The notes: a model not told the origin generated them from the sequence alone. A stretch of DNA of 64,000 nt from a virus (IMGVR_UViG_3300037067_007515:5202-69201), one strand, 5' to 3'; counted from the stretch's first letter, positions 2,789-64,000 are shown. Made by a program: numbers and translations.

Positions 2789-2809
2789 GGCCGGGCCCGC
2801 AGACAGCAA

Positions 2810-2835: not shown

Positions 2836-2864
2836 CGTTACTCCTCCTGCACCCGGCAGGCGAG

Positions 2865-3423: not shown

Positions 3424-3764
3424 CCCCCCGCCCCCGCCGCGACGGCCGTGAGCGCGGCGATCCCGCTCTGCCAGGCGAAGCCGCGGGAGAAGGCGGCGCT
3501 GCACCTGCGGCGGATCGCCTCCCGCGTGTTTCGCTGCTCCGGCGTCCCCTCGCGATCGGAGCGGACGGCGAGCACGATAGCGATGATCGAGGCTCCCAGG
3601 AGGCGCACGAGGTCAGGCCAGCCGAACGCGGGCAGCGTGCCCTGCATGGCCATCGCGAGGACCGCCGGCCAGAGGATAGAGCCCACGACGCCGGCGAGAG
3701 TCGCGCCCCAGACGGCGATGTCGTCATAGATGCGACGCCAGAGACGCTTGAGCTTGCCCATCAT
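3420..3764 (-). CDS. Holin-like membrane protein
   Basis: 2-3 TM segments, directly downstream of the endolysin with an overlapping start/stop. Confidence 0.55.
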   Translation of the reverse strand: MMGKLKRLWRRIYDDIAVWGATLAGVVGSILWPAVLAMAMQGTLPAFGWPDLVRLLGASIIAIVLAVRSDREGTPEQRNTREAIRRRCSAAFSRGFAWQSGIAALTAVAAGAGG

Positions 3765-4324: not shown

Positions 4325-4617
4325 TGCTTTCCTTTCTGGCTGATCGCCGCGCCGGAGAGGTAGGCCATCATCTCGGCGCGGCTCTCGCGGATGGTCTCCC
4401 GCAGGCTCGCGAGCTTTCCGTTGGCTCCGGCGCACTCGGCCAACACGAGGAGCGCGTCGAAAGTGGCGACCTGGCCGAGGATGAGCATGGGGATCGCGGC
4501 CTCGAGGCGCGTGGTGCGCTTCGGGACGCGAGCAGTAACGATGGCCCAGCGGCAGACCACGGCGCCGGTCCCGGTTGCGGCTGCGATGGCGACGCCAATC
4601 AAGATGTCTTTGAGCAC
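4321..4617 (-). CDS. Small membrane protein of the lysis region
   Basis: N-terminal TM; positional counterpart of 50164-50511. Confidence 0.55.
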   Translation of the reverse strand: MLKDILIGVAIAAATGTGAVVCRWAIVTARVPKRTTRLEAAIPMLILGQVATFDALLVLAECAGANGKLASLRETIRESRAEMMAYLSGAAISQKGKQ

Positions 4618-4931
4618 GTGCCCTCCTTGGCTTTCGCGACCTCGGCTGCCGCGTTCAACACCTTACGTACTTCCTCCCCTACGTCCTTGCCCTCGGCCGC
4701 CGCGAGGAGGATATCGGGGAGCGCCGCCTGTATCGCCGCGCGCTTGGCGGCGCGGGCCTCGGCCTCTGCGTCCACCTCGGGCGCTCGGATCTGCGCTTTT
4801 CCGTCGACGATCGTCACGGTCTCACCGGGCTCGGGAAACCGCTCAATCTCGTACCACCCATCTCCCGGGCACTCGTTCGCGCGCACCCCATGCGACTCGC
4901 TCGCTGAAAGCCTCTGGTACCACAGCTTCAT
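4599..4931 (-). CDS. Probable tail fibre assembly chaperone
   Basis: Follows the tail fibre with an ATGA overlap; homologue at 50508-50822. Confidence 0.55.
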   Translation of the reverse strand: MKLWYQRLSASESHGVRANECPGDGWYEIERFPEPGETVTIVDGKAQIRAPEVDAEAEARAAKRAAIQAALPDILLAAAEGKDVGEEVRKVLNAAAEVAKAKEGTCSKTS

Positions 4932-13956: not shown

Positions 13957-13962
13957 GGCGCG

Positions 13963-16677: not shown

Positions 16678-16685
16678 GCTCTCCC

Positions 16686-42786: not shown

Positions 42787-43305
42787 TCACATCTCGAATA
42801 GGGCGAGCTGGCCATCGCGGTCGGGCTCGTCGTAGGTCTCGCGCTCCGGCGCCACCACGGCGGCCGGCGCTGGCGGCGCCTCCGGGGCTGCCCTCTTCTT
42901 CCCGCTCCACTGCGAGGCGTGGGGACACGTGAGGAAGTGCGAGCCTCCCCCGGGGTCCATAGGCACCATGCCGCCGCGGCTACCACGCTCCCAGTAGATG
43001 GGGGCGTCGCACGAGCGACACTTCGATGTCGCCGGCGTCACGGAGGGGATCGCCGCTACCGCAGCCGCCGCGGGGTTTGCCGGCGCAAAGGCCGCCGTCA
43101 CCTCCTCGAGCTGCTCCGTCCGCCAGGTGCCGGCGTAGCAGTACAGCTCCTCCACGACCTCATCGCCGTCGCGGTCCTCGAGGGAGACGCGATAGCCGCC
43201 GCCGTCGATGGCAACGGCGCCAAGGACCTTGTAGAGGCCCTCGCGTCCCCAGATACGAAGAGGGGCGCTGAGTGCGAAGGGGTCCTCCCGCTTGGCGTCC
43301 TTCAC
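42787..43305 (-). CDS. Hypothetical protein with a zinc ribbon and a C-terminal QLALF motif
   Basis: CRSC...SHFLTC; GTGA overlap. Confidence 0.6.
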   Translation of the reverse strand: MKDAKREDPFALSAPLRIWGREGLYKVLGAVAIDGGGYRVSLEDRDGDEVVEELYCYAGTWRTEQLEEVTAAFAPANPAAAAVAAIPSVTPATSKCRSCDAPIYWERGSRGGMVPMDPGGGSHFLTCPHASQWSGKKRAAPEAPPAPAAVVAPERETYDEPDRDGQLALFEM

Positions 43306-43496
43306 ACGGGTACCCTCTTCCCGCAGCCCCGGCAGTGCGGGTCGCTCTTGCCGTCGCCGAAGCGGTCGACGACGGTCTGCACGCGGCCACCACAGAACGG
43401 GCACGGCCTCGTGCTGATCTCGACCGTCTCACCCTCGCCTGCCCGGGCAAGATCGTCGGACGTCTGCCCCTGGACCTCTGCGCCCTTTATCTTCAC
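43302..43496 (-). CDS. Small zinc-ribbon protein
   Basis: CPFCGG...CRGCG. Confidence 0.5.
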   Translation of the reverse strand: MKIKGAEVQGQTSDDLARAGEGETVEISTRPCPFCGGRVQTVVDRFGDGKSDPHCRGCGKRVPV

Positions 43497-43513
43497 GACC
43501 TGCCTCCTTCGGA

Positions 43514-43596
43514 TGGGTAGGGGAGGACTCGAACCTCCGGGGTTTCTACTGTCACGGCTTTACAGGCCGCTTCCTTCGCCGCTTGGATACCTACCC
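43514..43596 (-). tRNA. trnY: tRNA-Tyr (GTA), long variable region, no encoded CCA
   Basis: GGGTAGG/CCTACCC acceptor, TCC/GGA D-stem, GCGGC-CTGTAAA-GCCGT anticodon arm, GGAGG-TTCGAGT-CCTCC T-arm, A73. Confidence 0.88.
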
Positions 43597-43791
43597 AGAA
43601 AGAAAGGGGGCGTGCGGGACCCGTCGCCCGCCGAGCCGCGCGGAAAGGAGTAAAGCGCACGGCGCCGCCCCCAAAGAATGAACAGGCGAGCATCGCTACA
43701 AGGGAGCCGACGATCACCGCGGCGGACAGGGCCGCGAGCCCCACCACCGCGACACCTAGGACCGTCAGCTCTCCCGCGAGCTCGCCCGGAT

Positions 43792-44616
43792 TCACGTCTT
43801 GATCTCCCTGCCCCACCGATCGCACTCATAGAGCACGGTGGCCCGACGGACGGCAACTTTGTGCGGGTATCGCTGAGGCGCGGGCCACTCGTAGATGTCC
43901 GCCAACGCAACGCGCAGAGCGACATACCGATCCCCGCGGACGCCGCGAAACTCGTCGCAGAAGTAGGGCCGCGAGCAGGCGCGAAACTTCCCGCTGCCGC
44001 ACTCGTCCACCTCCGGCGCCCACGCCGTATGCTCAAGCGTGGCGCCGACGGTCCATTGCGTTTCGCGCTCCGTGCCCTCCTGCGTCAGCCAGTTCGCGGA
44101 CACGCGCTTGTAGAGCGTGATGCAGCCCTCGTGTTCTTCTACCCCCTCCCTCTCGATGTAGGGCTCGTCTCGGTACTCCTGGATGAGCGCGTGCGCACCG
44201 ACCACGGTGATAGCCCCGGGGCGGCGCGTCGTGCATACTGAGTGCCCGTGTAGTGTGATTACGCCGTAGCCCATGTCCTGGACCATGGCACGGTTCCGGG
44301 CCTCGACGCTGGCGTTATCCCGGGCCACGACGCTGGCGTTCCCCCAGGCCTCGACGCTGGCGTTATCCCGGGCCTCGACGCTGGCGTTATCCCGGGCCTC
44401 GACGCTGGCGTTATCCCAGGCCACGACGCTGGCGTTATCCCGGGCCACGACGCTGGCGTTCCCCCAGGCCTCGACGCTGGCGTTCCCCCGGGCCTCGACG
44501 CTGGCGTTATCCCAGTAGCGCGACACCACGACGTTGCCCTTGATGACGATCAGTCCCGCGAAATCCGCCGGGATGGCATCTAGTTCGGCCTGCGTTGCTA
44601 CGACGATCTCGTTCAT
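43792..44616 (-). CDS. Octapeptide-repeat (beta-helix-like) protein with a C-terminal conserved phage domain
   Basis: (R/W)(D/G)NASV(E/V)A x9 followed by ...ITLYKRV...CGSG...K.AVR. Confidence 0.75.
   Translation of the reverse strand: MNEIVVATQAELDAIPADFAGLIVIKGNVVVSRYWDNASVEARGNASVEAWGNASVVARDNASVVAWDNASVEARDNASVEARDNASVEAWGNASVVARDNASVEARNRAMVQDMGYGVITLHGHSVCTTRRPGAITVVGAHALIQEYRDEPYIEREGVEEHEGCITLYKRVSANWLTQEGTERETQWTVGATLEHTAWAPEVDECGSGKFRACSRPYFCDEFRGVRGDRYVALRVALADIYEWPAPQRYPHKVAVRRATVLYECDRWGREIKT
44299..44514 (-). repeat. Nine tandem 24-nt in-frame repeats
   Basis: YGG G(AT/GG) AAC GCC AGC GTC GWG GCC x9. Confidence 0.95.
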
Positions 44617-45311: not shown

Positions 45312-46868
45312 TCAGTCGCCGTATTCGCCGGCGTCGGGTATCAGTGCTCCTTGCCTGGCCCCGACGCATTCGCGCTTCTCTTTCGCGGTCCCCGCCTCCG
45401 CCTTGGCCTTGATGTCGGCGAGCTTCTGCATGTCACGCTCTCGCGTGCTCCCGCCCCGGGGCGCCGCGACCTTGTCCATGAGCTCCCGGTAGATCGCGTA
45501 CATGTCGTCGGGGGTCTTCGCGGCGAGACACCGCTTGGCGTACTCCCCGGCGGTCGGGAGATCCTGGGAGAGCGTCCCGATCTCCTTCGCGAGCGATACC
45601 ATCCGCTCCTCTGGGGTCTTCTTCTGGGCGAGGTCCTCCTTGATGCGGACCAGAGCCTCGACGGTCTTCGCGTCGTGGATGCGGTTACGGATGGAGATCC
45701 GCTCGCCGTCGCTCGTCACCCGCGCCTGCGTGAGCGCGATGATCTCGTCGAATACCTCCTGTTGGTCCTGCGGGCGCTTCTTGCCGTTCGCGGGAGGCTG
45801 CGGGGGCGGAACATTCTGGTCGGGCTCGCCTTCCTCCTCGGCGGGCGGCTCCGGCTCTCCGGGCTCGGGCTCCGGCGTATCCTTCGGATCCACAGCGGCC
45901 TGCTTATCCGACGGCGCGCCTTCCCGCACCTCAGCCGGGGCCTTTTCCGCTTCAACGGGCACCGGCTTGACGGGATCGCCTGTCGGCGCGGGCCCGTGCG
46001 CCTTCTCGATCTTTTGCGCGGTGAACCGCAACCACGGCACATCGGCGTTGTGGAGGAGCATGGCCTTCCTGGTCTCGGATAGCTTCTCCTCCCCGATCTT
46101 CTCGGCGTGGGCTACGAGGAGAGCATCGAGGGCCTGGTAGTCAGGTCGGGCCTTCTGGACGGGATTGACTCCGTTTGCACACCAGGCGGCCAGGCGTTGT
46201 CCGTCCTTCTCCGTGAGGATGTCCAGGCGGTGCTCGAAGAGGTGGCTGTTGTCCTTCATGGGGTGGGCGTAGTGCGTGTCCTGGTCGATGAGGAGCGAGA
46301 CGTAGAACTCGTACTCGATGCCGGGCCGCTGCTGCGGGCCCACGCCGATCTTCCGCACGTCCTTCTTGCCGCGGTCGTTGTCCTCCAGGACGTACTCGTC
46401 TTTCCCGCGGAGGCAGACGATGAGGTGGGTACTGCACCGGATCAGGCGATCCAGGAAGGAGTTGTGGCGCGGAGTGAGTTCGGCCCATCCCGCGAACTTA
46501 CCGGCCTTGCTCGTGGCCTGCACCTTATCCACGAGCTCCATGACGCCGCCCTTTCCGGCCCACTCGTGGCTGGTACTGTCGACGATGATGCAGTCGGGCT
46601 TCGTGGCCTCGACGACGTCGAGGACCGCGATGTACCGCTCCGGGGGGAACGGAGGATCGAACTCGACGATGTCAAAAGCGAACTCGTCGGCGTAGATCTC
46701 CGACCGCCGATTCTCGGTGTCGATCAGAACGATCCTACCCTCCGGCCCAACCAGGCCCCGAGCGATGCGGAGGGCGGAGTAGGTCTTTCCGCCTCCGGAG
46801 GGGCTGATGAGCGCCATGAGGAGATTGACCTGCGACCGCGTGGCCTTGCGGACAATGAACTCGTCCAT
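45312..46868 (-). CDS. sak4: Sak4-like (AAA_24) ATPase recombinase with a C-terminal extension shared with ERF
   Basis: SPSGGGKTYSAL (Walker A), IDTE, IIVDSTSHEW, RDG/RPGIEYEF motifs; start MDEFIVRK at 46868. Confidence 0.88.
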   Translation of the reverse strand: MDEFIVRKATRSQVNLLMALISPSGGGKTYSALRIARGLVGPEGRIVLIDTENRRSEIYADEFAFDIVEFDPPFPPERYIAVLDVVEATKPDCIIVDSTSHEWAGKGGVMELVDKVQATSKAGKFAGWAELTPRHNSFLDRLIRCSTHLIVCLRGKDEYVLEDNDRGKKDVRKIGVGPQQRPGIEYEFYVSLLIDQDTHYAHPMKDNSHLFEHRLDILTEKDGQRLAAWCANGVNPVQKARPDYQALDALLVAHAEKIGEEKLSETRKAMLLHNADVPWLRFTAQKIEKAHGPAPTGDPVKPVPVEAEKAPAEVREGAPSDKQAAVDPKDTPEPEPGEPEPPAEEEGEPDQNVPPPQPPANGKKRPQDQQEVFDEIIALTQARVTSDGERISIRNRIHDAKTVEALVRIKEDLAQKKTPEERMVSLAKEIGTLSQDLPTAGEYAKRCLAAKTPDDMYAIYRELMDKVAAPRGGSTRERDMQKLADIKAKAEAGTAKEKRECVGARQGALIPDAGEYGD

Positions 46869-46879
46869 AGCATCCCCCT

Positions 46880-47152
46880 TCAAAACGGAACCGATTCGGC
46901 AGGGACCGGCTCGGGCAGGTGCTCGAGGCGCTCCCTGACCTGCGCCCACTGACGCATCGCGTGTTCGATATCCGCGAGGGTCGTGCCGGTGAGAAGCGGG
47001 ATGAGGTTGGCGTCGGCCTCCGCGAGGCGAATCGAGTCGATGGCGACGTAGGGGATCGTGATGTCCTGCGAGGGATCTGACCGATTGACGGACGCGCGTA
47101 CTACTACGCAAACGCCCCTTACCGAGAGTCTCAGTTCGATGAGTGCCGCCAT
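46880..47152 (-). CDS. Conserved hypothetical protein
   Basis: Homologue at 934-1209. Confidence 0.7.
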   Translation of the reverse strand: MAALIELRLSVRGVCVVVRASVNRSDPSQDITIPYVAIDSIRLAEADANLIPLLTGTTLADIEHAMRQWAQVRERLEHLPEPVPAESVPF

Positions 47153-47176
47153 ACGGGTCTCCTTTCGTGTGACGGG

Positions 47177-47377
47177 TCAGGCGGATCGCGACGGCGATCC
47201 GGGCTTCGGCAGGTAGACCTCCTTTCTCTCCCGGTGGCTGAGTGGGCCCGAATGGGTCGGGGCGGTCCGGCGCGGGTTGCGCGCCGAGTGCCAGAGGATG
47301 AGGAAGCGCCAGAACGGGACGTCCGGTTTCAGGCGCAGATATGCGGTAGCAGAACGCTCGACCTCGGCGTCGGTCAT
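47177..47377 (-). CDS. Conserved small hypothetical protein
   Basis: Homologue at 1234-1434. Confidence 0.6.
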   Translation of the reverse strand: MTDAEVERSATAYLRLKPDVPFWRFLILWHSARNPRRTAPTHSGPLSHRERKEVYLPKPGSPSRSA

Positions 47378-47625
47378 TTCGCGCCCCCCCGGGCTCCCGC
47401 CAGATTGCCCCCAGAGGCCTCTGTTTGTACAACCACGGGGTTTTCCCCCTGGGGGACGGGGAATGTGTCGCGGACCCGCTCCTGGGGCGGTTTTCGGATA
47501 CGGGCCATGTGGGCGCGGACGGCGTACCTGATGAGGTTCTGGACCGACCGGAGCTCCCGGTCCGCCTGCGCTTCGATCGCGGCGAGCTCGTCGGGTGGGA
47601 ACGTTATGTGGATGGGCTTGCTCAC
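47374..47625 (-). CDS. Ribbon-helix-helix DNA-binding protein
   Basis: VSKPIHITFPPDEL...; homologue at 1431-1682. Confidence 0.75.
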   Translation of the reverse strand: MSKPIHITFPPDELAAIEAQADRELRSVQNLIRYAVRAHMARIRKPPQERVRDTFPVPQGENPVVVQTEASGGNLAGARGGAK

Positions 47626-47804
47626 GCCACGACCCCGGCGTTCTGCCGCTCGAGGTACTCGCGCACCGCGCGCTGGATGACCCAACCCTTCTTGCGCCCC
47701 TCGCGTTGGCAGTAATCCCTGAGCGCCTTGTGGTCGGCCTCGGAGAATGGGACGTATGCCTGCGTGCGTCCGGCGGCCGGTCTCTTGCGGATCGATTGTG
47801 CCAT
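47622..47804 (-). CDS. Ribbon-helix-helix regulator, probably leaderless
   Basis: Homologue at 2124-2327. Confidence 0.75.
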   Translation of the reverse strand: MAQSIRKRPAAGRTQAYVPFSEADHKALRDYCQREGRKKGWVIQRAVREYLERQNAGVVA

Positions 47805-47810
47805 GGGGAG

Positions 47811-47840
47811 ACTATAGGACGGAAAGAGAACGACTGTCAA
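47811..47840 (-). promoter_or_regulatory. Sigma70-type early promoter TTGACA-N18-TATAGT
   Basis: Conserved with 2334-2363. Confidence 0.75.
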
Positions 47841-47870
47841 TAGGGGCGGTCACTTTTTTTCAGGCTCATA

Positions 47871-47899
47871 TTGTCGAGCCGCCCGGGGCGCGGTAGATT
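47871..47899 (+). promoter_or_regulatory. Moron promoter TTGTCG-N17-TAGATT
   Basis: Conserved boxes with 2395-2423. Confidence 0.7.
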
Positions 47900-47916
47900 C
47901 TGTGTAGGAGGACGTG

Positions 47917-48555
47917 ATGCGTAAGTACGGTCTCTTTCTGGTCCTGGTCGCGAGTCTCTGCGTCGCCGCGTGCGATCCCTCTACGCCCACGGAGGCGTAC
48001 TCCGTCTCTCTGGTCGCCTCCGAGCACGGAGGGGTAACCCTCTCGCCGGAAGAGGATTCGTACGGCTATTACCGGCTGGTAGTGGCGATGGCAACGCCCG
48101 CGGCCGGCTATGTGTTCTCGGCGTGGGCCGGCGACATCTCCGGCACCACCAACCCCACGCACTTCAGAGTCGAATCCGACATGAACGTCGGCGCCGTCTT
48201 CGCGGAGCTGCTTCCCTCTCCCCTTATTATGTCCTCGATCCGCCTCGGGACCGACATCGACGGAGCCGACTGCGTTATTGCGCGCTTCCGGAACGACGAT
48301 ACCGTCAGGACCGTTGACGCTTTCCGTTTCTGGGTCGAGATCCTGGACGACTCCGGAGATCCGATCCTCTTCGATGGCTCCCCCTACTTTGTCGGCGAAC
48401 TCACTCCGGCATGGATTCGACCGGGGGCCGAGCTCGTCGAGACATCGTGGACCCTGGGCGGGTCCGGAGTCCCCGACAGCATCGGCGACAGCGGGCTCAG
48501 TTGGATCGCCTTCGACGACGGCACCGAGTGGGAAGACGCCCTCCACAATCCGTGA
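47917..48555 (+). CDS. Lipoprotein (moron) with an InlB B-repeat-like domain and a second Ig-like domain
   Basis: Lipobox VAAC; YSVSL...GGVTLSP...ATPAAGYVFSAWAGD B-repeat pattern; C-terminal FDDGTEW. Confidence 0.8.
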   Translation: MRKYGLFLVLVASLCVAACDPSTPTEAYSVSLVASEHGGVTLSPEEDSYGYYRLVVAMATPAAGYVFSAWAGDISGTTNPTHFRVESDMNVGAVFAELLPSPLIMSSIRLGTDIDGADCVIARFRNDDTVRTVDAFRFWVEILDDSGDPILFDGSPYFVGELTPAWIRPGAELVETSWTLGGSGVPDSIGDSGLSWIAFDDGTEWEDALHNP

Positions 48556-48564
48556 AGGCAGCAA

Positions 48565-48590
48565 GGGCCGCCCTCCCTGGAGAGCGGCCC
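48565..48590. terminator. Putative bidirectional terminator hairpin
   Basis: Same GGGCCGC/GCGGCCC stem as 2810-2835. Confidence 0.5.
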
Positions 48591-48619
48591 CGTTACTCCT
48601 CGTGCGCCCGGCACGCGAG

Positions 48620-49048
48620 CTACCCCGGATGTAGAAGCGCGCGCAGCCCCCAGCCCAGCAGGGCCCCCAGGATTCCCGCGGCCGGTACGCCGATCGCGAG
48701 TCCGATACCCCAGGCTTCCGCCTTCCCGAGCGCGGAGTCTCGCTCGGCCGTGATACCGGCGAGATCCACGAGCACCGGCGCTACGGCCTTAGCCGCCGCT
48801 TCCTCCGCCGACAGCCGGATCTCCTCGCGGGCCTCCGCCTGGAGCTCGAGCACGATCGTTGCGATCTCGGGCACGCTGTAGGACTCCTCGGGCCCGAGTA
48901 TCGAGACGATCTCCGCCTCGGTCAGATGCAGCAGCGACGGCTCCGGGGATGTCGGTTCCGGTTCGCTCGCCCGCGCGAGCGAGCACGTCAGCAGGAGGAG
49001 CACCGTCGAGAGCAGCAGCTTCCGCGGATCGTGCATCTTCGCCAACAT
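48620..49048 (-). CDS. Signal peptide + coiled coil + C-terminal TM protein (spanin-like partner)
   Basis: LLLSTVLLLLTCSLARA signal; C-terminal WGIGLAIG...LLHPG; overlaps 48789-49190 out of frame. Confidence 0.6.
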   Translation of the reverse strand: MLAKMHDPRKLLLSTVLLLLTCSLARASEPEPTSPEPSLLHLTEAEIVSILGPEESYSVPEIATIVLELQAEAREEIRLSAEEAAAKAVAPVLVDLAGITAERDSALGKAEAWGIGLAIGVPAAGILGALLGWGLRALLHPG

Positions 49049-49190
49049 CCTTTGTACCTCCTGGCCGTAGTCGGCCGAGTAGCGCCAGTATACCGGAGGC
49101 CCGGCCGGCCGTCAGCGCCCACACGACGATGAGCGCGACGGCCGCCAGGATCCACCCCGCCCACGCGAGGACCTTACCCGCCTTGGACAC
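48789..49190 (-). CDS. Rz/i-spanin-like N-terminal TM protein
   Basis: VSKAGKVLAWAGWILAAVALIVVWAL TM followed by an Ala-rich periplasmic region. Confidence 0.5.
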   Translation of the reverse strand: MSKAGKVLAWAGWILAAVALIVVWALTAGRASGILALLGRLRPGGTKDVGEDARSAEAAALDGAPPADVLARAGERTGTDIPGAVAAASDRGGDRLDTRARGVLQRARDRNDRARAPGGGPRGDPAVGGGSGG

Positions 49191-49449
49191 CGCGCGACTC
49201 CTGTGCCCTCTTGATAGCGGGGCCACCGAAAGCAGCCGCGATGATCGCGGCGTCCAGCCCGGCCAGGATCGGCAGGGCTGCCATCCACGACGGCATTCTG
49301 TCGGGGAACGCGAGCGAGATGATCGCCGACACCAGGATCAGCACGGAGGCGAGCACGGGCCCTCCGATCTTGATGAGGGTCAGCGTCGCCGACTCCTTCT
49401 CCCCTGCTACCACCTCGGGAACCGCCGAGGACGGGATCGTGTCCGACAT
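49174..49449 (-). CDS. Holin-like two-TM protein
   Basis: AGAGGAGG SD; two hydrophobic helices; downstream of the endolysin. Confidence 0.55.
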   Translation of the reverse strand: MSDTIPSSAVPEVVAGEKESATLTLIKIGGPVLASVLILVSAIISLAFPDRMPSWMAALPILAGLDAAIIAAAFGGPAIKRAQESRGVQGG

Positions 49450-49461
49450 ACGCACCTCCTC

Positions 49462-49533
49462 TTGCAGGGGCGGGGATCGAACCCGCGGCCTCCAGCTTAT
49501 GAGGCTGGCGAGCTACCGCTGCTCTACCCTGCG
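49462..49533 (-). tRNA. trnM: tRNA-Met (CAT), initiator-like acceptor and D arms with an atypical anticodon stem; no encoded CCA
   Basis: CGCAGGG/CCCTGCA (C1:A72), GAGC/GCTC D-stem, CCAGC-CTCATAA-GCTGG, GCGGG-TTCGATC-CCCGC, A73. Confidence 0.9.
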
Positions 49534-49538
49534 TCTTC

Positions 49539-50153
49539 TCATACCGGCGGCGGCCAGACGATGCCCTCGGCCACGATGCTCACCTCTTCCTCCGACGTCA
49601 TCCGCCGATTGAAGCCGTCGCCCTGCCACCACGGCTTTCGCGTGTGCCAGGAGTCGTTGTAGATCATCTCGCCCGTCGCCTTGTCGTAGGCCACCACCGC
49701 GATGTAGTGCCCCGGCGGCGTGAGACAGGCCTGCACGGCGCAATGCCGCCCCAGGTGGTCGGCGATTCTGGCCGCGGATAGATCGATGGCGCGCGAGCCC
49801 TGGATCCCCCAGAGTTCCCGGGCCGCTATCACGAGCATGGCGGCGTGTCGGTTGTTGGGCTGGAGCGTCGGGTCGATGCCGGTCTCGCGCCGGAGGAGGT
49901 CGTAGTTGCGAGGGTTGTTGAGGTACTCCGTGATGAGGTCATCCGGAGGCGCCACGTACCCCGCCGGCGTTCGCGTTGCCAGGGCACCGGAGAGATCCCA
50001 CCCCGCAGCCTCGAGGCAGGAGCACGCGGCGTCCGACCCGCAACTCTGGCGGACGTGGGTGTCTCCGAGCTTCCTCCGGAGTTCCTCGAGGATGTCGTTG
50101 TCCTGGATGTACCAAGTCGTACGTTCGGCCCACCGTGCGGCGCCTACGATCAT
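49539..50153 (-). CDS. C39-like cysteine peptidase, probable endolysin
   Basis: Q-S-C-G, GHYIAVVAYD, YNDSW catalytic pattern; occupies the M23 endolysin position. Confidence 0.75.
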   Translation of the reverse strand: MIVGAARWAERTTWYIQDNDILEELRRKLGDTHVRQSCGSDAACSCLEAAGWDLSGALATRTPAGYVAPPDDLITEYLNNPRNYDLLRRETGIDPTLQPNNRHAAMLVIAARELWGIQGSRAIDLSAARIADHLGRHCAVQACLTPPGHYIAVVAYDKATGEMIYNDSWHTRKPWWQGDGFNRRMTSEEEVSIVAEGIVWPPPV

Positions 50154-50163
50154 GGTCTACCTC

Positions 50164-50511
50164 CTACCGTTTGAGCACTATCGACTTGATCTCGGCAAGG
50201 AGCTGGGAGATCGTCTCGATGCGCTGGTTGATGAGCGCGATGTCTCCCGCCGTCGAGGATCTCACTTCCGCGATGTCCTTCTCACTCACTCCCTGGACAG
50301 CCGCGATCTGGCTCGCGAGTCCGGCGTCTACCGCCTTCATCTGGTCCATGACGGTGAGGATCTTGTCGATCTGCACCGTCAGTACCGTCCTGTCTCTGCT
50401 GCCCTGGATCGCCAGGGTTGTGGAGCAGATCGTTGCCGCGAACAGGATGATGGAGGTCACGAAGAGGACGATCTTCATGCCGTCCGCGGGCGCGTGGGTG
50501 CGGTCTGTCAT
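50164..50511 (-). CDS. N-terminal TM coiled-coil protein of the lysis region
   Basis: ATGA overlap; KIVLFVTSIILFAATICSTTLAI TM. Confidence 0.55.
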   Translation of the reverse strand: MTDRTHAPADGMKIVLFVTSIILFAATICSTTLAIQGSRDRTVLTVQIDKILTVMDQMKAVDAGLASQIAAVQGVSEKDIAEVRSSTAGDIALINQRIETISQLLAEIKSIVLKR

Positions 50512-50822
50512 TGGTGTGTTCCTCCTGCTGGCTGCTTCGATGCGTTGAGAACCTTGCGTACTTCCTCTCCGATATCCTTGCCCTCTGCCGCTGCGAGCAG
50601 GATGTCCGGGAGCGCTGCCTGTATCGCCGCGCGCTTGGCGGCGCGGGCCTCGGCCTCGGCGTCCACCTCTGGCGCTCGGATCTGCGCTTTGCCGTCGACG
50701 ATCGTCGCGGTCTCTCCTGTCCCAAGGTCGCGCTCGAGTTCGAACCAGTCTTGACCTGGCGAACACAGCGCCCATCGTCTTTCGCTCTCGTTGTCACTGA
50801 CTGCGTGGAACCACAGCTTCAT
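50508..50822 (-). CDS. Probable tail fibre assembly chaperone
   Basis: Homologue of 4599-4931. Confidence 0.55.
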   Translation of the reverse strand: MKLWFHAVSDNESERRWALCSPGQDWFELERDLGTGETATIVDGKAQIRAPEVDAEAEARAAKRAAIQAALPDILLAAAEGKDIGEEVRKVLNASKQPAGGTHQ

Positions 50823-50831
50823 CCGAGTCTC

Positions 50832-52937
50832 CTATACCAACAATCCCAGCGCGTACAGGGCCGCGTCGGCCCGGTAGTTCGCATTTCCGGCGGCCATTGG
50901 GTGTGCCCCGGCCGCGCCGAAGTTCATCGTGAAGTACCACGTTACGTATGGTACGCCTCCCGACCACACTACGGGAACGAGAGCATGAAACTGGTAGATA
51001 TCATATACCGCAACTGTGGCCACCGGGGCCGCGTACCGCCTGTAGCCGAGAAAGTTCCCTACCGCCGGCGACGCCCCGTAGGAGGTCGCATAGCTCGGGT
51101 ACGCATCGAACCACGAACCCGCGGCAACCTTTGCCGCCGCGGCAGAGAGGTATATCTCACACGAAACCAACAGCCCCTTTGCATTGGATAGCCCTGGAGG
51201 CAAGACGGACGCCAGGGACACGTTCGTCACGGCCGAGCTTGCGACTCTGGAGGTCTGGGTGTCGGTGTAGGAAAGGGCCAGGTTCGAAAAGTACGTTCCG
51301 CAATCTCGCCACAGGATGTGTCCGCCGTACTTCATGTCCGACAGGATCGGCGCAGTGGGGATGTCGTGGATGGTCGTGCCCGCGGCGTCGCGAGCAAGCA
51401 GGCCCTCAGCGGGGGAGATCCCGATGTAGCGACCGAGATCGTCGGTGATGCCGATGTTCGCGTTGTGGAGCCTGATGCCGTAGCGGTTGATGCGGACGCT
51501 CTGGTACTTGTTCGTCACCTCCGACGTGTCGTACCAGGGGACGCCACCGGTGTAGTGCGTGGTCGAGGTGTCCTCGGTGCTGGGCTGGTAGAGAAAGTCG
51601 GTGATGAGGGCATTGGCTACGTAGTCATTGAGGGACACCGCTACGGAGTTTCCCAACCCGCCAACTATCAGGGCGTTGGCATTGTACGTCATGCCCGACA
51701 CGGTTCCGGCGGATGCCGCGGTCGTCTGCTCAGCGCCGTCTACGAAGAGCTGGATGGTCTGGTTCGGGATGTCCCACACCACCTTGAGATGTCGCCACGC
51801 CCACAGGCTCGCATTGGTGGCGAAGGCGGAGTCGGAGGCAACGGAGCGGTAGTTGCTGGCATCCTGATAGATCAGGGCGATGTACTTGTCGGTGGCGATG
51901 TCGTAGCGCAGCGACACCGTATTCGCTATGCTCGCGCCGGTGCCTCCGAGCACAAAGACGTACTTATCCCTGTCGGCGATGTCGTACGTATGCCACGGCC
52001 GGAGCCGCAGTTCAATGGTTCCAGTTCCGGCTGGGTCGATAGAGTACACGATTCTACTGTGATCCGATCGGCTAGTTGGAATGTAGGGTGTGGCGAAGTC
52101 CTTGTCCTCTACCTGCACCGCCGTGAAGTAGGCGGTCCCGGTACCGGCCGTTGTGTCCGGCCGCAACGTCACGACAGGGGTAGCAGATCCCACGGCCGTG
52201 CCGATAACCACGACTTCGCAGATGGTGTCGGAGGCGTAGAAGTCGGCGCGGAACAGGGTCCCAGTAGCTGCCGCCGCGCTCGCCGTCGCCCACGTGATGG
52301 TGACGTTGGCGCGGACGGTGCCAGCGTAGGAGTCCCGGATCAGCAGTTGCGAGGTGGCGCCCGAGCCCTTTCGCACGGTGACGCTGAAGCAATGGATCTG
52401 TCCGCTCGTCGCCGCCAGGATCTGCGTGACGTTGCCCGCTGTGCTGGCGCTCGCGGTAACGAGCGTGAACGGTCGCCCACGCCAGGAATACGCCGACGCC
52501 GCGGCCGTCGCCGAGGTCGGAGTCCAGTAGGTGGCGTCGGTAAGATCCTCGGGGCTCTGAACCAAGTTCGTCGTGGCGCCAAAGCAGCCGATGGTTCCCC
52601 GCCCCGGGAACTTCGCGAGCGCGTTGTTGTACTCCGTGCCGACCTCGTCGTAGAGGTGCCCGGGCTCGTAGGTGATCTCCTTCGTGCTCGGGCGACGCCC
52701 GAGGGAGGACACGCAATCCGGCTGCGACAAGTCGAAGAGCTCGGAGGCGGCGGGGATCGGGTCGAGACCGCGCAATACGCTGTTACCAAGTGTTACGATC
52801 TCGTTGTGCGCGACCAGGGCGTCGATGGCGGAGAAGATCCGCGAGAACTGGGGCCCGATGACCTGCCCCGTCACCTCGATGTCTTGGAAGCGACCGAATA
52901 CCCCGCTACTGTCCTGGGTCGTCGCGCGTGTTGGCAT
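50832..52937 (-). CDS. Tail fibre / receptor-binding protein with a LamG-like domain
   Basis: Mosaic homologue of 4928-6997. Confidence 0.75.
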   Translation of the reverse strand: MPTRATTQDSSGVFGRFQDIEVTGQVIGPQFSRIFSAIDALVAHNEIVTLGNSVLRGLDPIPAASELFDLSQPDCVSSLGRRPSTKEITYEPGHLYDEVGTEYNNALAKFPGRGTIGCFGATTNLVQSPEDLTDATYWTPTSATAAASAYSWRGRPFTLVTASASTAGNVTQILAATSGQIHCFSVTVRKGSGATSQLLIRDSYAGTVRANVTITWATASAAAATGTLFRADFYASDTICEVVVIGTAVGSATPVVTLRPDTTAGTGTAYFTAVQVEDKDFATPYIPTSRSDHSRIVYSIDPAGTGTIELRLRPWHTYDIADRDKYVFVLGGTGASIANTVSLRYDIATDKYIALIYQDASNYRSVASDSAFATNASLWAWRHLKVVWDIPNQTIQLFVDGAEQTTAASAGTVSGMTYNANALIVGGLGNSVAVSLNDYVANALITDFLYQPSTEDTSTTHYTGGVPWYDTSEVTNKYQSVRINRYGIRLHNANIGITDDLGRYIGISPAEGLLARDAAGTTIHDIPTAPILSDMKYGGHILWRDCGTYFSNLALSYTDTQTSRVASSAVTNVSLASVLPPGLSNAKGLLVSCEIYLSAAAAKVAAGSWFDAYPSYATSYGASPAVGNFLGYRRYAAPVATVAVYDIYQFHALVPVVWSGGVPYVTWYFTMNFGAAGAHPMAAGNANYRADAALYALGLLV

Positions 52938-55900
52938 TTACTTCCACCCCATGAGGTCGGAGACCTCTCCGCTCTCGAGCGCTTTCAGGAGGCGCTTCGG
53001 ACCCGTGACCGGAAGGCCGGCTCCGAACAAAAGGCCCTCGGACAAACCGCGGACCGCCTTCTCTATGTCGCCGTCCTGAATGGCCTTCACGGAGGACGCG
53101 ACACCCTCGATCCCGGGGAAGAACTTCACCCCCTGCCCCGTAGGGCGTCCCTGAATCATCGCCGAGATGTCCGATCCGACGTAGGGGAGCATGTCAACAA
53201 ACTGCACCCAAGCGCCGGCCCGCAGTCTCTTCTTCCTCTCCTCGGGATCGTCCTCTGACAAGGCTCCACTCGCGACTGCGATAGCAACTCCCGACAGAAT
53301 CATTGCCGTGAGATTTCCCGCGGCGTGCATGATCTGCCGGTTCTTGACCGCCAGGGGCACGTCGACTAGGGCAATGTTCCAAAGACTGTTGAGCGCCGAG
53401 GTGAACATCGTGAACCACCGCGTTACGTCGGCCCCGCGGTACATCTCCGCGACGTCCTGGACACGTCCGGACGGTTGTCCTCGGATAGTGGACTTGTCGG
53501 CGGCCTCGGCCGCTGCTACCTCATCGCCTCCGTTCTCCTTCAACGCCCGGTCATAGACGGCCTTCCACCCGATCGTGATAGAGGTAATGTCGATCACCTC
53601 GAAGAGCTTCATGCCGGCGGCACCTATCTTGCGGTTGATGTCGTTCCACAGGTTGCCGTTGCTCAATTTCAGGAGGTCGAACTCCGCGGAGATCGAGCGG
53701 TTGCGTACGAGTTCGCTCCGATCTTTGACAAACCGCATGAGATCGTTGGAGAGGATGTCTCCTCTCGCTACGGCCGTCGCCTTGCCGGCCAGCCACTGGC
53801 CCGCCGCGCTCACCAGGTGGGGAAGTCCCGCGTCTGCGAGATAGGGCAGGATCGTCGTCAGGTTCTTGGCCGCACTCAAAAGATTGAAGCCTAGGTAGGC
53901 AATCACGACGTTCTGCCGGAGCGTGCGCTGCAGGCGATCAAGCCCTGTGAGGTTCCCATAGATGTCAGGACGCGCGAGGTTGTTCGTGAACACCTGTAAC
54001 CACCGGGTGACCGCGGTCCCGTGGATCTGCGTGATAGCCTGGCGCGTGTCGGGATCCTCGAGGATTCCGTGCATACGCTTCACAAGAAGGTCCAGGGTGA
54101 TAAATCCTTCCGTCTCCTCCATGCTCTGGAGCCACAGCGGGAAGAGCTCCGTCCTGATCGGCGTCTGCCAGTAGTCGGGTACATCGATCCGCTCGAAGGT
54201 GGGATGCCTGGCAACGAACTGCTTTCCGAGTCCGTTCCGCGCAACCAAATCCGCGACAACCTCCGTCTGCCGCTCGTTGTAGTTAGCCTCCATCCTCCGG
54301 TGCGGGACGTAATGGTCTTCCCCGGGAAGATCCATGTTGAAGCGCTCGATGAAGGCCTGCCGCAGCCTCGGGAAACTACGTTCCATGTCGGCACCCATAG
54401 CATCGGCTAGCTCCCTCGCCTCCGGGGAGAGCATGCCGATCCCCTTCTCGATCACCTCCAGCGGAATGTTGTTGCCCTGGGTGAGGGCCGCGGCCGTGCG
54501 CTCGTTCTCGATCCCGAGGTACCAGAACATGACCTGTTGAAGGGTCGGCGCCTTGCCCTTCCATGTGCCTTGGCCGTAGCGGAAGCCATCAATGTCGATC
54601 TCCTGGCCGAGCCATGTATATCCCGAGAGCCGTTTTGCAGACAATCGGTCAGGGGTGACCTTCAGCCGATCCATGAGCTCGATGATCGGCTCACGGCGTT
54701 TCCGCTGGGTCCGCTCGCTCTGGTTCCATCCTCGATTGTAGTCGTCGAGCATCTTTGTGAAGACGCCCGGCTTCCCGCCATCGAGTAGAAGCATCACGCG
54801 GTCGGGCTTTATGGTTGACAGGAGGCCCCGCACAAAACTAGAGCTCGGCTTCGCGGCGCCGACGGCCTCGGTCGGCTCCTTGCCGCGTAGTACGGTAGAC
54901 TGCACTAGATTCCGCTGGTCCTTGCGGTAGCGTTGCTCCTGCCGCACGAGGAGTCCGCGCTTGAACTTTCCCAGCCGCTCCAGATCCTTGCGCTGCTCGG
55001 CCAGGTCCTCGAGCTCGGTCATGCTCCACTGATTGAGACTCTTGCTCTGGATGCGCTTCCATTCTTCTTCGGAGAGGACGGCGCGCGCTTCCGGGTTTGC
55101 CTCGAAGAAGGCCCGGGACTGCTCGCGACGGTAGAGCGTCTTCTCGCCACGGAAGTGGGGATCCACCTGCTGGCCCAGGATCCGGATCATCTCCTTGTAT
55201 TCAAAGTCGACCGACGGACCCGGCGGCCGGGTGATGCGCTCGGCGAGCTTCCGTTTTGCGGCTCGCACACGCTGCAGGGCCCTCCGCTCCTTCTCCTTTG
55301 CGCGGATTGCGTCGGCCACTTCCTTGACCCTGGCCTCGGTGAGCTTCTCCTGTTGGTTCTTCCGGAGCTCCGCCAGGTCGGATAGGGTCGCGGTCTCGCG
55401 CTTCTCCAGGTCGGCTTCGGTAAGGGTACCGGTGCGGATCTCCGCGGCGAGTTCCGGATCCTCCACGTCTGCGGCGGCCGCCTGGCGTACGTCGGGAGAT
55501 GACTCCTCGGCGGAAATCTCCGGCATGGGGATCCCGCCGAGCTCGCCCTCCACGGGAGCAGAGCCCTGCTCGCTTTCGAGCTGCTGCTGCATCGCGGCGT
55601 CACCCATCATGGTGGCGTAAATTGCCCGGAACTTTCGCCCATCCCTCCGGATCGCCCGCAAGGCCGATTGTACCGAGGTGTCCGCGGGCATCTTGCCAGA
55701 GCTCATCTTTCCGACGAGAGCCGCGAGCGCCGGAGGTAGTAATCCTGTGTTCTCCTGCTTCCGAGCCTCGCGGAGCCATGACCACAGGGCCGCGTTGTTC
55801 TTCGCTTGCAGAAGCTCGAGGAAGTCCTTGGTCGCGCGTTCGGCGGCGAGGGGGATGAAGGGATGCGCGCGGTCCCACATCCGTTGATACCATTCCGCCT

Positions 55901-58900
55901 TGACCGCGTCGCCAACGTCGGCTCCGGGAAGACCCTCGGACTCTATCGCTTCCATAGCGGAACGGAAGTCCGCTGCGCTCGGGTAGAGCTTCGCCTGCTC
56001 AACCAGCGGTTTCTCCGGATCCGTTCCGAAGGTCTGGCTGGCCTGATCGCCTCCGTCTGGGTGGAACAGTAGCGTGTTGACGATCCGTACCTTCAAGGGG
56101 TTAAAGACAGCGTAGTTATAGGGAGCTCCGGCGGACGGTCCGCGTCTCTGGTAGCTCTTCGGGATTCGGGTCCCGGTGATGCCGGCACGGTCCAGCAATT
56201 CCGCCCCGGCTCGAGCTCCTCCCGCTACGTTCTCGGCGGCCCTTAGCGCTTGTTCTCCGGTATGGCTTGCGAGGAGGAAATTGCCGGATGCCCCTACTCG
56301 CCAGGCGTGGTCCTTTCTGACTTGTGCGTTGATGCGCTCTGCCAGTTCTGAACCGATCTCCTTGTTCCAGTCCATCCAGACATCATCTGCCCCGGGGTTG
56401 ACTACCACCCGATAGAGGACCCTGGGCGGCTTCGGGGTAACCTTGACCGAAATCTCGAAAGCCCGCTCTATGAGGCGTACGGCGTGATCTAAGGTATTCA
56501 GTCGCGCGGTGTTGGCCTCCCAGCGTTCGGCCAGATCCACCGGCATCTCCTTGACCTCGCCATGGAGCCCCTGCGCGTACTCCTTGTCGAGGCGGATCCA
56601 GGTATCCTCAATCGCCTGCATGCGGTCGCGATGAACGGTCAAACGCTCCAGGAGGAACGCCTTGCTGGTGCGTGCCCAGCTCTGGACGGTATCGGAGTTC
56701 ACCCCCTGCGGAAGGCCCCCGATTGCCCAGGCGATGGTTTCTGTTCCTACGATCTCATCGAATTTGCCGGCCAGCTTGATGTGTAGCTGGGGCGTGGTCT
56801 TTACCGATGCCGCGATTACCTCGGCATAGTGCCGGGCGGTTCCTTCCTCCTGGGCGACATACGTGCCCCAGCCATAGGCCTGGGCCCCTTCTCCGGTTCC
56901 CATGAAGGAGGGATCGAACGACGAGAATACCACCTTGGTACCGTGGAAAGCCTCGGTGTGGAACAGGGACGCCTGTCCCTCTACACGTTCGCGCCGGCGA
57001 TCAAGCACCCGGCGGGCGGCCTCGGCGGCCTCCCCCTCGCCCTCGGCCGTGCGTTCGAGTTGTGTAATCCGGTCGGGTTCGACGATCTCTCCGGAGGCAA
57101 CCTTCGCAGCATACTCGGCACGGACTCTGTCGCGATCGCGTTCCCAGGACGCGGAGGCCTCCATGATCCTCCCCTGCATCGCCTTCGCGGACTGCTTCGA
57201 TACGCCGCCCGGGGCCCGATGCGCCTCGGGGAAAGACGGAGCTCCCGAAGGGACACCCTCTTGAAGGCTGTACTCCTCGAACGAGAGGACCGGCGCCTCC
57301 TCGGCTCCCGCCGGGATCTCCGCCGCTTGGCCGAAGAGTTCAAGGCTTCCCTTTCCCATGCCGGCGCGGTCACGGAGTTCCGCCTGTTTCTCGGGGCTCG
57401 AGGTCCAGTTCGACCAGGCGAGCATCTCGTCCTCGAGCTCGACTAGGCGTTTCTGTATCCCCGCGGTGTCTCCAGCCTTGAACCCGTAGCGCTCGACAAC
57501 CTTGGCCTGTTCCCCCTTCGAGAGGCGGAGAGCACTTCGTAGGGCAGCGTGCTCCGCTCGGAGCTCGGCCTGCTTCTTCGTGGCTTCCTTGGCTACCGCT
57601 TCCGCGGCAACCATGAACGACTCGTTGCGGCCGAACAGGTCCCCCTGTTCAGCCTCGAGTACTCCGGTCGTCTGCTTCTGGAGGATCGCCAGGTAGTTGA
57701 CGAGTTCTGCGGCCGTCAACTCCTTTGCGCGAAGGATCCCCGCATCCTGCAGGGCGTCGTTGTTGGGTGCGGCAGCCGCTATGGCAGCGGCTTTTTCCTC
57801 TCCGATCTGACCGTTGCGGTAGAGGGTATAGAGACCATCGGAGGCATAGCGGCCGATCGCGAAGCCCTTTCGGCCTTTGTCTCTACCAAGAAGTCCTCTG
57901 CGGGATGCTTCTTCCTCGGAAATGGCAGAATGACGGAAGTAGTTCGCATAGTCCTTGATGCTCCCCTGTCCGTCGCGGATGTTGGCTTCCGCGTCGAACA
58001 TCATGGCCATGGCCGCGGTAAACCCGTCGGCCTCACGGACCACCTGCGCCGGGATCGTCTGCTCTCCGAGCCGGCGCGCTAGGTCCAGCCGGTGACGTCC
58101 AGTGATGACCTCGCGTCGACCGTCGGTCCGCTCCCATACGACGATCGGAGCAGTTCCCAGCCGTTCGTACCGTTCTCCGGAGATAGGCTCTACTACGCCC
58201 TCGGCGCTCGCTCCCTCCTTGAAGTTGGGCACTTCTGCGGACAGAGTCAACTCCCCCACCGGAAGATCAACAGCCGGCACCGCGGAGAGGTCGATAGAGG
58301 TAACGCTTTCGGCCTCGGTGACAGGCTTGGCGATCTCGGGCGACACGGTCTCTCCGAAGAGGTCCTCCTGCACCTGGCGTTGTACCTGCGTCGGCGCCTG
58401 TACCTCCGAGGTAGCGGTCGGAGTCGTCGGCGTCGTGGCGGCCGTAGCGAGACCGCTATCGGGCTGCTGGAAAATCCGGTCATAGGCCTCGATAAAAGAC
58501 GGCGAGAGCGTCCGCTTCCCCATGGGTCGCTCCCGAATGTAGCTCACGAGTTTCGTGAGCATCGCGGCGATCTGCTCGAAGATCTTCCGGAGACCCTCCG
58601 TCGGCGCCCTCCCGGTGCCCAGGTAGTCCTCGAACTTGTCCGCCAGGGTTTCAAGGTCCTGATCGGTCCAGGTCTGCCGGAGCTTCCCGAGGGCTTGCTC
58701 GAAACCCGCGATCTGCTCCTTGTTCAACGCCAACCGTTCGACGGCATGAAAGTATTCGTGCGTGGCAACGTGGAAGTCTGCCCCCTCAAGGGCCGCGAAG
58801 ACCGCTCTGACCCTACCCTTGTACTCCTCGCGGTCGACGTCGAGCGGGTTTATCGCCTGCCCTGCCACCCGGAAGCCCGTCGCGGCAATGGCCCCGTGCG

Positions 58901-63172: not shown

Positions 63173-63180
63173 GCTTCCCC

Positions 63181-64000
63181 CTACACCACGGCCTTAGCCG
63201 CCGGGAGTGTGTCGATGAATCCGCTTGCAGCGGACAGGATACTGGAAACCGCTCCGACACCTGCGGCGGCCACGATAGAGCTCCGGTTCGTGACCAGGTT
63301 GGTCTTGTGCCGCTGGGCGTCGGCCAGATTGCGGCGATACTCCTGCGTGAGGATGTCGGCCTGGTCCTGGATGTCCTCCTTCGCCTGTTCGGTCTGGAGG
63401 ATGGCGGTGTTCAAGTCGCGATCAAGCTGCTCGGCCGCAATGCGCGCCTCGTTCTTGATCCGGGCCGCCTCCTGTTTGTACTGGGTATCCTCGGCCTTCT
63501 CCTGGTAGGCGAGCTCTGCCGTCTCCTGCTTCGCCTGCCGCTCGACGTCGGCGGTGCTCGCTTCCAGGTTCTCATAGGTCTGCTTGAACGCGAGCTCCGA
63601 ATCCTCTCGCGTACGCTCGAGCTCCTTGTCCGCGAGAGCGTTGGCCGCCATGACGTCCTCGATGCTCTGCTCGGCTTCGGTCCTGGCCGAGCCAACCTCT
63701 TGCGCGTAGCCCATGGCGGTGGCCTGGACGTTGTAGCGGGCCTCCCGCTCGGCCTCGCGCTGCTCTTCCCGCGCGGCCTTCTCGACCTGGCGAAGGGCGA
63801 GAAGCGGGGATCCAGTTGCGCGGACGGCCGTCGCCGCGAGCCCCGCCCTGGCCTCCCCGGCTTTGAGTGCGGCCTCTTCCTTTGATCCTCCTACCTCGTA
63901 CTCGGCCTGTTGGCCGGCGCGGTTGAGGGTGAGGATCGCCTCGTCCTTGGTCTGGGCCAGGAACTGATCGCGCTTGGCCGTGATCTGGGAGACCTTACGG
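63181..64000 (-). CDS. Internal virion coiled-coil protein (5' partial)
   Basis: Homologue of 16686-17969; frame stays open to the window end. Confidence 0.75.
   Translation of the reverse strand, partial: RKVSQITAKRDQFLAQTKDEAILTLNRAGQQAEYEVGGSKEEAALKAGEARAGLAATAVRATGSPLLALRQVEKAAREEQREAEREARYNVQATAMGYAQEVGSARTEAEQSIEDVMAANALADKELERTREDSELAFKQTYENLEASTADVERQAKQETAELAYQEKAEDTQYKQEAARIKNEARIAAEQLDRDLNTAILQTEQAKEDIQDQADILTQEYRRNLADAQRHKTNLVTNRSSIVAAAGVGAVSSILSAASGFIDTLPAAKAVV

Follow-up and report, generated by a model that had tools for sequence, protein, structure and literature searches.

A phage-borne initiator-type tRNA gene wedged between a probable endolysin gene and a holin-like gene

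It has long been a question why phages carry tRNA genes, and especially why some carry a single tRNA-Met gene. Excision of tRNAs from longer transcripts is known from the tRNAs in the tufB operon of E. coli, from the tRNA punctuation of mitochondrial transcripts and from the CCA-less tRNAs of phage T4, which are matured by RNase BN. Where a bacterium has a CCA-adding enzyme, even a tRNA whose gene does not encode CCA can be matured, as some of the T4 tRNAs are. Like these tRNAs, the one described here would be freed by cuts in the transcript that holds it, and its CCA-less precursor would likewise need trimming and CCA addition. Unlike the T4, tufB and mitochondrial cases, it is a single tRNA that parts two lysis genes, and the Shine-Dalgarno (SD) sequence of the downstream gene touches its discriminator base.

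For its anticodon stem the nearest described relatives are mutants of the E. coli metY initiator (Shetty et al. 2016, PMC5389676), which carry the same individual pair changes with G30:C40 kept. Those are single laboratory changes, whereas the natural tRNA combines two of them, a combination that is not among the mutants described in the accessible sections of that paper. The paper also states that initiators throughout the alphaproteobacteria naturally have an A-U first pair ('1st AU'), which is used efficiently by rhizobial ribosomes (PMC5389676). On the phage side, Sinorhizobium phiLM21-like prophages are reported to have single tRNA-Met or tRNA-fMet(CAU) genes (PMC12429752); these may be related to the present tRNA, to which they are likened by description and not by sequence. 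Phage tRNAs have also been connected with defence. According to one paper, specific tRNAs made by some phages let them escape retrons and other defence systems (PMC11555353); another notes that Shigella phages generally avoid encoding tRNA-fMet (PMC10264068).

The tRNA gene and the lysis cassette around it

The window analysed here is 64,000 nt long and covers bases 5202-69201 of an IMG/VR virus record of 69.2 kb (IMGVR_UViG_3300037067_007515), and positions are counted from its first base. The tRNA and its neighbours are listed below, 5' to 3' along the minus strand, with the basis of each assignment in brackets where one applies.

50164-50511, minus strand: upstream neighbour of the peptidase, a protein of ~115 aa that combines a coiled coil with a TM segment at its N-terminus
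49539-50153, minus strand: papain-fold (C39-like) cysteine peptidase of 204 aa, probable endolysin (sub-threshold Pfam match, homologues, AF2 model, Foldseek, cassette slot)
49534-49538, minus strand: 5-nt spacer GAAGA between the peptidase TGA and tRNA position 1, which would be the RNase P leader (sequence)
49462-49533, minus strand: initiator-type tRNA(CAU), 72 nt (ARAGORN, Rfam, sequence, cloverleaf fold, lineage alignment and pair counts)
49455-49461, minus strand: Shine-Dalgarno sequence GAGGAGG of the holin-like gene (sequence)
49174-49449, minus strand: holin-like protein of 91 aa with two hydrophobic segments (hydrophobic segments, homologues)
48620-49226, minus strand: two overlapping ORFs (48789-49190/49226 and 48620-49048) at the cassette end, putatively spanin-like in function
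48556-48646, no strand assigned: block conserved with the sibling copy, with a GC-rich hairpin at the convergent cassette end, likely terminator (repeat and alignment)

ARAGORN called a tRNA-Met(CAU) at 49462-49533 on the minus strand, and Rfam family RF00005 matched it from end to end (1-71/71, 65.8 bits, E 4.4e-12). The acceptor stem, CGCAGGG/CCCUGCA, opens with a C1xA72 mismatch and continues with G2-C71, C3-G70 and A4-U69; it is followed by U8 and A9. The D stem GAGC/GCUC gives A11:U24 and closes a D loop of 7 nt. In the anticodon stem, C27 C28 A29 G30 C31 face G39 C40 U41 G42 G43 across the loop CUCAUAA, and the molecule is completed by the variable loop AGGCC, the T arm GCGGG-UUCGAUC-CCCGC and the discriminator A73. 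The gene does not encode the 3' CCA. The cloverleaf is perfect, all the conserved tertiary positions are intact, and the same fold was formed when the tRNA was folded together with the flanking mRNA. No extra mRNA structure was found around the tRNA, the context fold being no stabler than shuffles (z = 0.21). In the minimum-energy fold, the holin SD (GGAG) pairs with CCUC ~25 nt inside the coding region (49425-49461). A BLAST comparison with E. coli genomes returned no match and so did not help to classify the tRNA. The first-pass annotation had described a 5-nt gap, a tRNA-SD junction, C1:A72, A11:U24 and the anticodon stem as given above, and this anatomy proved correct throughout by ARAGORN, Rfam and the sequence itself. 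The tRNA was also considered as an attP remnant, which we rejected because it is full length and lies inside the lysis operon, away from the genome end.

The TGA stop of the peptidase ORF (49539-50153) ends 5 nt ahead of C1. On the other side, A73 (49462) is followed directly by GAGGAGG (49455-49461), then by UGCGU and the ATG (49447-49449) of ORF 49174-49449. A scan of the minus strand over 49534-53200 with a sigma-70-like consensus predicted no promoter.

The 204-aa peptidase gave only a sub-threshold Pfam match, to Peptidase_C39_2. Compared with the PDB by sequence it found nothing meaningful, and the fold search alone was informative: its AF2 model, built with homologues (pLDDT 88.7), was matched by Foldseek to papain-like and C39 cysteine peptidases. 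Cys38, His149 and Asp167 are invariant among about 15 (14-16) homologues, which were taken from the protein database; a pattern search of IMG/VR found no relative of the peptidase. The C39-like family has no named endolysin relatives. The same cassette slot is held by three unrelated cell-wall enzymes, namely an M23 peptidase in the sibling copy (3761-4435), the C39-like peptidase (49539-50153) and an Amidase_2 enzyme in a related contig (L005:2459-2998). From its modelled fold and its place in the cassette, and not from a family assignment, the peptidase is a probable endolysin. The 91-aa protein, without a match in Pfam and PHROG searches, may be called holin-like for its two hydrophobic segments. 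The labels 'endolysin' and 'holin' of the first-pass annotation are therefore reasonable by fold, position and hydrophobic segments, but neither protein matches a known endolysin or holin family. A gene similar to that of the ~115-aa TM/coiled-coil protein precedes the peptidase homologues in contigs L274 and L276.

The record contains ~1.5 head-to-tail copies of a podovirus-like genome of ~45.9 kb, and the copies are ~85% identical; either the tandem is real or two strains were joined in assembly. Between 1-18000 and 45600-64000 whole cassettes are swapped, among them the lysis genes, a plus-strand lipoprotein-like gene and a recombinase. The sibling lysis cassette (~2400-4950) is non-homologous between conserved flanks, and ARAGORN and alignment bear out the earlier remark that the tRNA is absent from it. 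ARAGORN likewise found no tRNA in four related contigs (L005, L274, L275 and L276). In L276 a peptidase that is 56% identical is followed by a 62-aa ORF and then by a holin-like gene whose product is 80% identical; in L005 the holin-like homologue (63% identical) comes directly after the amidase. In L274, L275 and the P0002 contig, whose peptidase is 71% identical, the next gene begins 0-13 nt past the peptidase, and the genes called in P0002 leave no room for a tRNA (gene calls only). The 62-aa ORF of L276 (L276:2724-2912) is rich in lysine, has no family match and stands at the exact slot of the tRNA. Thus the tRNA is an insertion at the exact endolysin/holin module junction, a variable slot, and it is unique to one genome copy. 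Its absence from the sibling and from the contigs with peptidase or holin homologues makes it dispensable for this type of phage.

The portal and terminase proteins are nearest, at 22-31% identity, to those of podoviruses of Rhodobacteraceae, Pelagibacter and Bordetella, and the closest tRNAs to the lysis-cassette tRNA are in Rhodobacteraceae prophages. From these weak protein similarities and the tRNA similarity, the host is probably Gram-negative and likely an alphaproteobacterium.

The only other tRNA that ARAGORN found in the 64-kb window is a tRNA-Tyr (GUA) at 43511-43597 on the minus strand. Its CCA is not encoded either, and 3-4 nt past its discriminator comes GAAGGAGG, the SD of a 64-aa ORF (43302-43496) that starts with GTG and encodes a zinc-ribbon protein with two CxxC motifs. 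Since the tRNA-Tyr and the initiator-type tRNA both abut an SD, tight tRNA-SD junctions are a habit of this genome, occurring twice. A copy of the tRNA-Tyr with an identical score is present at G000:3925-4007. Elsewhere in the window, ORF 43792-44616, which has a weak DUF7666 match, contains eight tandem 24-nt units (44253-44537) encoding octapeptide repeats of the NASVEAR/W type.

Initiator identity and comparison with native alphaproteobacterial tRNAs

Several features of initiator tRNAs are found in the lysis-cassette tRNA: an open 1:72 position, the formylation determinants G2:C71, C3:G70 and A73, the A11:U24 pair, and the anticodon CAU in the loop CUCAUAA. Three consecutive G:C pairs in the anticodon stem are not found; instead the stem has A29-U41, G30-C40 and C31-G39 (au/GC/cg).

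All CAU tRNAs were scanned in three alphaproteobacterial genomes and fell into three classes. One is the multi-copy initiator (…GAGC…GCUC-G-UCAGG-CUCAUAA-CCUGA…), another a GGGCC-type, Ile2-like tRNA present in all three genomes, and the last, elongator-Met-like, turned up in a single genome under the pattern used. The lysis-cassette tRNA shares 74-81% identity with the native initiators, against 57-63% with the other two classes. It has neither the paired 1:72 nor the D stem GCUC/GAGC (Y11:R24) of Ile2 and elongator-Met tRNAs, and it resembles them less than it does the initiators. Its assignment as initiator-type is thus supported by identity and by identity elements, both read from the gene.

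The native alphaproteobacterial initiators have an au/GC/GC stem and are multi-copy in Rhizobium, Agrobacterium, Phaeobacter and Sinorhizobium. They share with the lysis-cassette tRNA C1xA72, G2:C71, C3:G70 and A73, the D stem GAGC/GCUC with A11:U24, the CUCAUAA loop, and the pairs A29-U41 and G30-C40. Within the anticodon stem the differences are solely C-G for G-C at 31:39 and C-G for U-A at 27:43. Outside it, the lysis-cassette tRNA has A and not G at position 9, a D loop shorter by 2 nt, and A-U at 4:69. The native initiators are chromosomal and encode CCA, whereas the lysis-cassette tRNA is phage-carried and does not.

The first-pass annotation had described the tRNA as lacking the three G-C pairs of initiators. 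The stem is as described, but the description is overstated, for A29-U41 is natural in alphaproteobacteria, G30-C40 is kept and 31:39 alone is flipped. It had also named the middle pair as the most important of the three, which agrees with E. coli genetics (PMC5389676): there G30:C40, indeed G30, is crucial, and this pair alone suffices in E. coli. In the same work E. coli could live on either the '1st AU' or the '3rd CG' mutant as its sole initiator, and neither is placed among the mutants that grow poorly at 22 °C (PMC5389676). As each change is functional by itself and G30:C40 is retained, the au/GC/cg stem would by analogy be expected to be compatible with initiation.

A phage-borne lineage with the au/GC/cg stem

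The lineage was defined by the exact pattern GAGC-AG..GGUA-GCUC-G followed by CCAGC-CUCAUAA-GCUGG-AGG and was filtered for good stems; the lysis-cassette tRNA matches this D-arm and anticodon-arm pattern exactly. The pattern was found in 105 IMG/VR contigs and at only 29 loci in 185,579 species genomes, where it is sporadic and mostly in Rhizobiaceae and Rhodobacteraceae. In addition to their multi-copy native au/GC/GC initiators, five alphaproteobacterial genomes carry 1-2 copies of the au/GC/cg tRNA. Three of the genome loci were checked and all are prophages, the tRNA lying among terminase, portal, major-head, protease and baseplate genes. The phage or prophage location of the lineage is shared by the present tRNA, which is from an IMG/VR virus record; copies in genomes are sporadic.

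We compared 63 distinct well-formed members, the lysis-cassette tRNA included. Their acceptor and T stems vary widely but stay paired, with 148 double-change cells against 35 in shuffles. Position 1:72 is mismatched in 47 members, a weak U:A or A:U pair in 13 and G:C in 1. G2:C71 is present in 42/63, C3:G70 in 48/63 and A73 in 52/63, and CCA is encoded in 50/63 (79%). Because of how the set was defined, the counts carry ascertainment bias, and the uniform D and anticodon arms, like the percentage of paired positions, are partly built in; the compensatory changes and the open 1:72 are not.

Among named phages, Rhizobium phage RHph_TM3_3_3 (MN988468) has an annotated tRNA-Met with the same anticodon arm and 85% overall identity. 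Its D arm differs from that of the lysis-cassette tRNA in the length of the D loop alone, and it is the single tRNA of a medium-sized genome. In lineage tRNAs such as this one CCA is encoded and the genes lie in intergenic gaps near early, antiterminator and terminase genes, whereas the lysis-cassette tRNA does not encode CCA and is wedged between its neighbours. Erythrobacter phage R6L has a tRNA with the same acceptor stem as the lysis-cassette tRNA, and Clavibacter phage CN1A and Pseudomonas phage PaMx74 have other initiator-like tRNA variants.

A looser scan of IMG/VR gave at least 118 initiator-like tRNAs, which may include host genes at prophage ends. Among the 118 matches listed, the anticodon stem is GGG/CCC in ~30%, AGG/CCU in ~40% and UGG/CCA in ~15%, and the third pair is flipped in ~8%. 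About 92% of the matches listed keep G31:C39, and G30:C40 is present in all but one of those listed (L160-L273), in agreement with E. coli genetics. The stem variants among these listed matches include CAAGG, CCAGG, UCUGG, GAAGG and others.

Members of the lineage are found in many contexts, near early, packaging and head genes, some of them in gaps of 100-250 nt; none of the other members examined is in a lysis cassette. Four, in prophages and viral contigs, lie 7-32 nt past major-head or head-closure genes (L026:4066-4139, L078:149-220, L111:6048-6119 and L118:3404-3475), so that riding on late structural operons recurs in the lineage. By crude ORF calling, 7/109 lineage contexts are embedded with ≤60 nt on both sides, and the one tight case (1/109) is the lysis-cassette tRNA. 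A lineage tRNA also occurs among 17 tRNAs (stretch scanned) in a contig of 425,361 bp from a MAG labelled Pacearchaeota (L125, JBBACR010000001.1). An IMG/VR viral contig (L085) has the same length of 425,361 bp, and the supposed archaeal contig is probably that of a misbinned jumbo phage. The lysis-cassette tRNA is thus a fairly ordinary member of a widespread, little-studied lineage, and its placement alone is unusual.

Proposed excision from the lysis message and the possible roles of the tRNA

On balance we favour, with reasonable though limited confidence, the reading that this is a genuine phage initiator-type tRNA, functional, transcribed together with the lysis genes and excised from their mRNA. 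Flanked by a spacer of 5 nt on the upstream side and 0 nt on the other, the tRNA gene has no space for its own promoter or terminator, so that it would be transcribed inside the late lysis mRNA and its maturation would have to cut that mRNA. RNase P would cut at the tRNA 5' end, 5 nt past the peptidase stop, and the 3' end would be trimmed by an RNase Z/BN-type endonuclease or by exonucleases. As CCA is not encoded, maturation needs an extra step, in which the CCA-adding enzyme of the host would complete the 3' end. MetRS would then charge the tRNA by way of the CAU anticodon and A73, and the formyltransferase may act on it through the open 1:72, G2:C71, C3:G70 and A11:U24. Entry to the P site would be through the retained G30:C40, and the tRNA may supplement the initiators of the host, or take their place, late in infection.

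Each tRNA matured would inevitably, as a side effect, split a peptidase message from a holin message. If the 3' cut were of the RNase Z type, after A73, the holin mRNA would begin at its SD; if the message were cut downstream and trimmed back by exonucleases, the holin start region of that molecule would be destroyed. In either event the anatomy of the locus physically implies that tRNA production would be linked to holin expression. A selected role in lysis timing is doubtful, because most members of the lineage are not tightly embedded and the others examined lie outside lysis cassettes. The interpretation given in the first-pass annotation is supported in part.

That such a role is nevertheless the selected one, the tRNA being mainly an RNase P/RNase Z signal that sets holin level and lysis timing with decoding secondary or nil, seems to us quite unlikely. 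The packing is extreme, 5 nt past a stop and with an SD right at the discriminator, and this is the sole tight case in the 109 lineage contexts, although the ORF calling of that survey was crude. The CCA-less tRNA-Tyr also lies 3-4 nt ahead of an SD and its 64-aa ORF, and the peptidase-holin slot is variable, empty in L274 and filled by the 62-aa ORF in L276. Yet every initiator identity element is retained, which a mere processing signal would not need, the sibling genome and the relatives lyse without the tRNA, other lineage members occupy many contexts with gaps of 100-250 nt, and the tRNA in its context folds no more stably than shuffled sequences. The view that the gene is a neutral passenger or is decaying, brought to the module junction by recent illegitimate recombination, inefficiently matured because it has neither CCA nor its own promoter, and bringing no benefit, we consider very unlikely. 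One genome alone has the gene, which occurs neither in the sibling nor in any of the contigs found to have homologues of the flanking genes, and 79% of the lineage differ from it in encoding CCA; against decay stand the perfect cloverleaf with intact tertiary positions and a sequence well within the variation of a lineage under structural selection, and a tRNA without CCA is maturable where a CCA-adding enzyme exists. Highly improbable, finally, is a non-initiator role, as elongator tRNA-Met or as tRNA-Ile2 with a lysidinylated C34 reading AUA. AUA is about as frequent as AUU (4.3 per 1000 codons in 17 large ORFs), and tRNAscan-based annotations call such phage tRNAs either Met or fMet. But an open 1:72 together with A11:U24 is the hallmark of initiators, the D arm matches native initiators except for a D loop 2 nt shorter, identity to Ile2-like or elongator-like CAU tRNAs stays at 57-63%, and the open 1:72 is maintained across the lineage. 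An open 1:72 pair disfavours the binding of EF-Tu.

A further proposal, made in the first-pass annotation too, refines the reading of a functional, co-transcribed initiator and does not exclude it. The lineage may have been selected to escape nucleases that cleave tRNAfMet, such as PIN toxins of the VapC type or other anticodon-arm nucleases, by a recoded stem that sustains late translation; we hold this to be possible but not likely. The VapC of an alphaproteobacterium (BoVapC1 of Bosea) cuts tRNAfMet at the stem-loop junction, and the 31:39 flip alters a base beside the VapC cut junction. VapC toxins of Rickettsia reportedly cleave essential RNAs. The phage-type anticodon arm departs from native alphaproteobacterial initiators exactly at 31:39 and 27:43, and the idea that phage tRNAs carry changes evading anticodon nucleases has been published (PMC10264068, PMC11555353). 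In the published cases (van den Berg et al. 2023, PMC10264068; PMC11555353), as here, a phage copy of a host tRNA has changes near the nuclease cut site; they are, however, elongator tRNAs with changes in the anticodon loop, whereas the lysis-cassette tRNA is of the initiator type with changes in the stem and is compared with them from its sequence only. The first-pass annotation had taken recognition of the three G-C pairs by VapC as established. This does not hold, for an eLife paper states that the recognition sequences of such nucleases are not known (PMC10264068), which counts against the proposal too. So does the rarity of the 31:39 flip, found in only ~8% of the 118 phage-borne initiator-like matches listed, and so does timing, since a tRNA gene at the far end of a late operon would be ill placed to counter an abortive response that sets in early. 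The idea that the phage itself encodes a nuclease against initiator tRNA finds no support in ten early-region ORFs scanned with Pfam, among which no PIN, VapC or anticodon-nuclease domain was matched; the only domains matched there were PD-(D/E)XK, ParB and DUF7448. A reading that joins both themes appears unlikely to us. It supposes a phage-specific initiator class whose stem keeps only G30:C40 and alters bases by the toxin cut site, co-opted at this locus as punctuation whose excision gives the holin mRNA a 5' end at its SD and contributes to lysis timing.

A tRNA that looked odd by itself is one of a large phage-borne lineage that keeps the initiator elements and the essential stem pair and varies the rest. 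If the stem neither initiates nor resists nucleases, and excision has no effect on the neighbouring genes, it would be simply another phage tRNA-Met. The lineage offers a concrete, testable set in which to ask whether an au/GC/cg stem initiates and whether it resists tRNAfMet nucleases, and cultured carriers such as RHph_TM3_3_3 exist. The wedge between peptidase and holin, in turn, is a natural test case for how tRNA excision may shape the expression of neighbouring phage genes.
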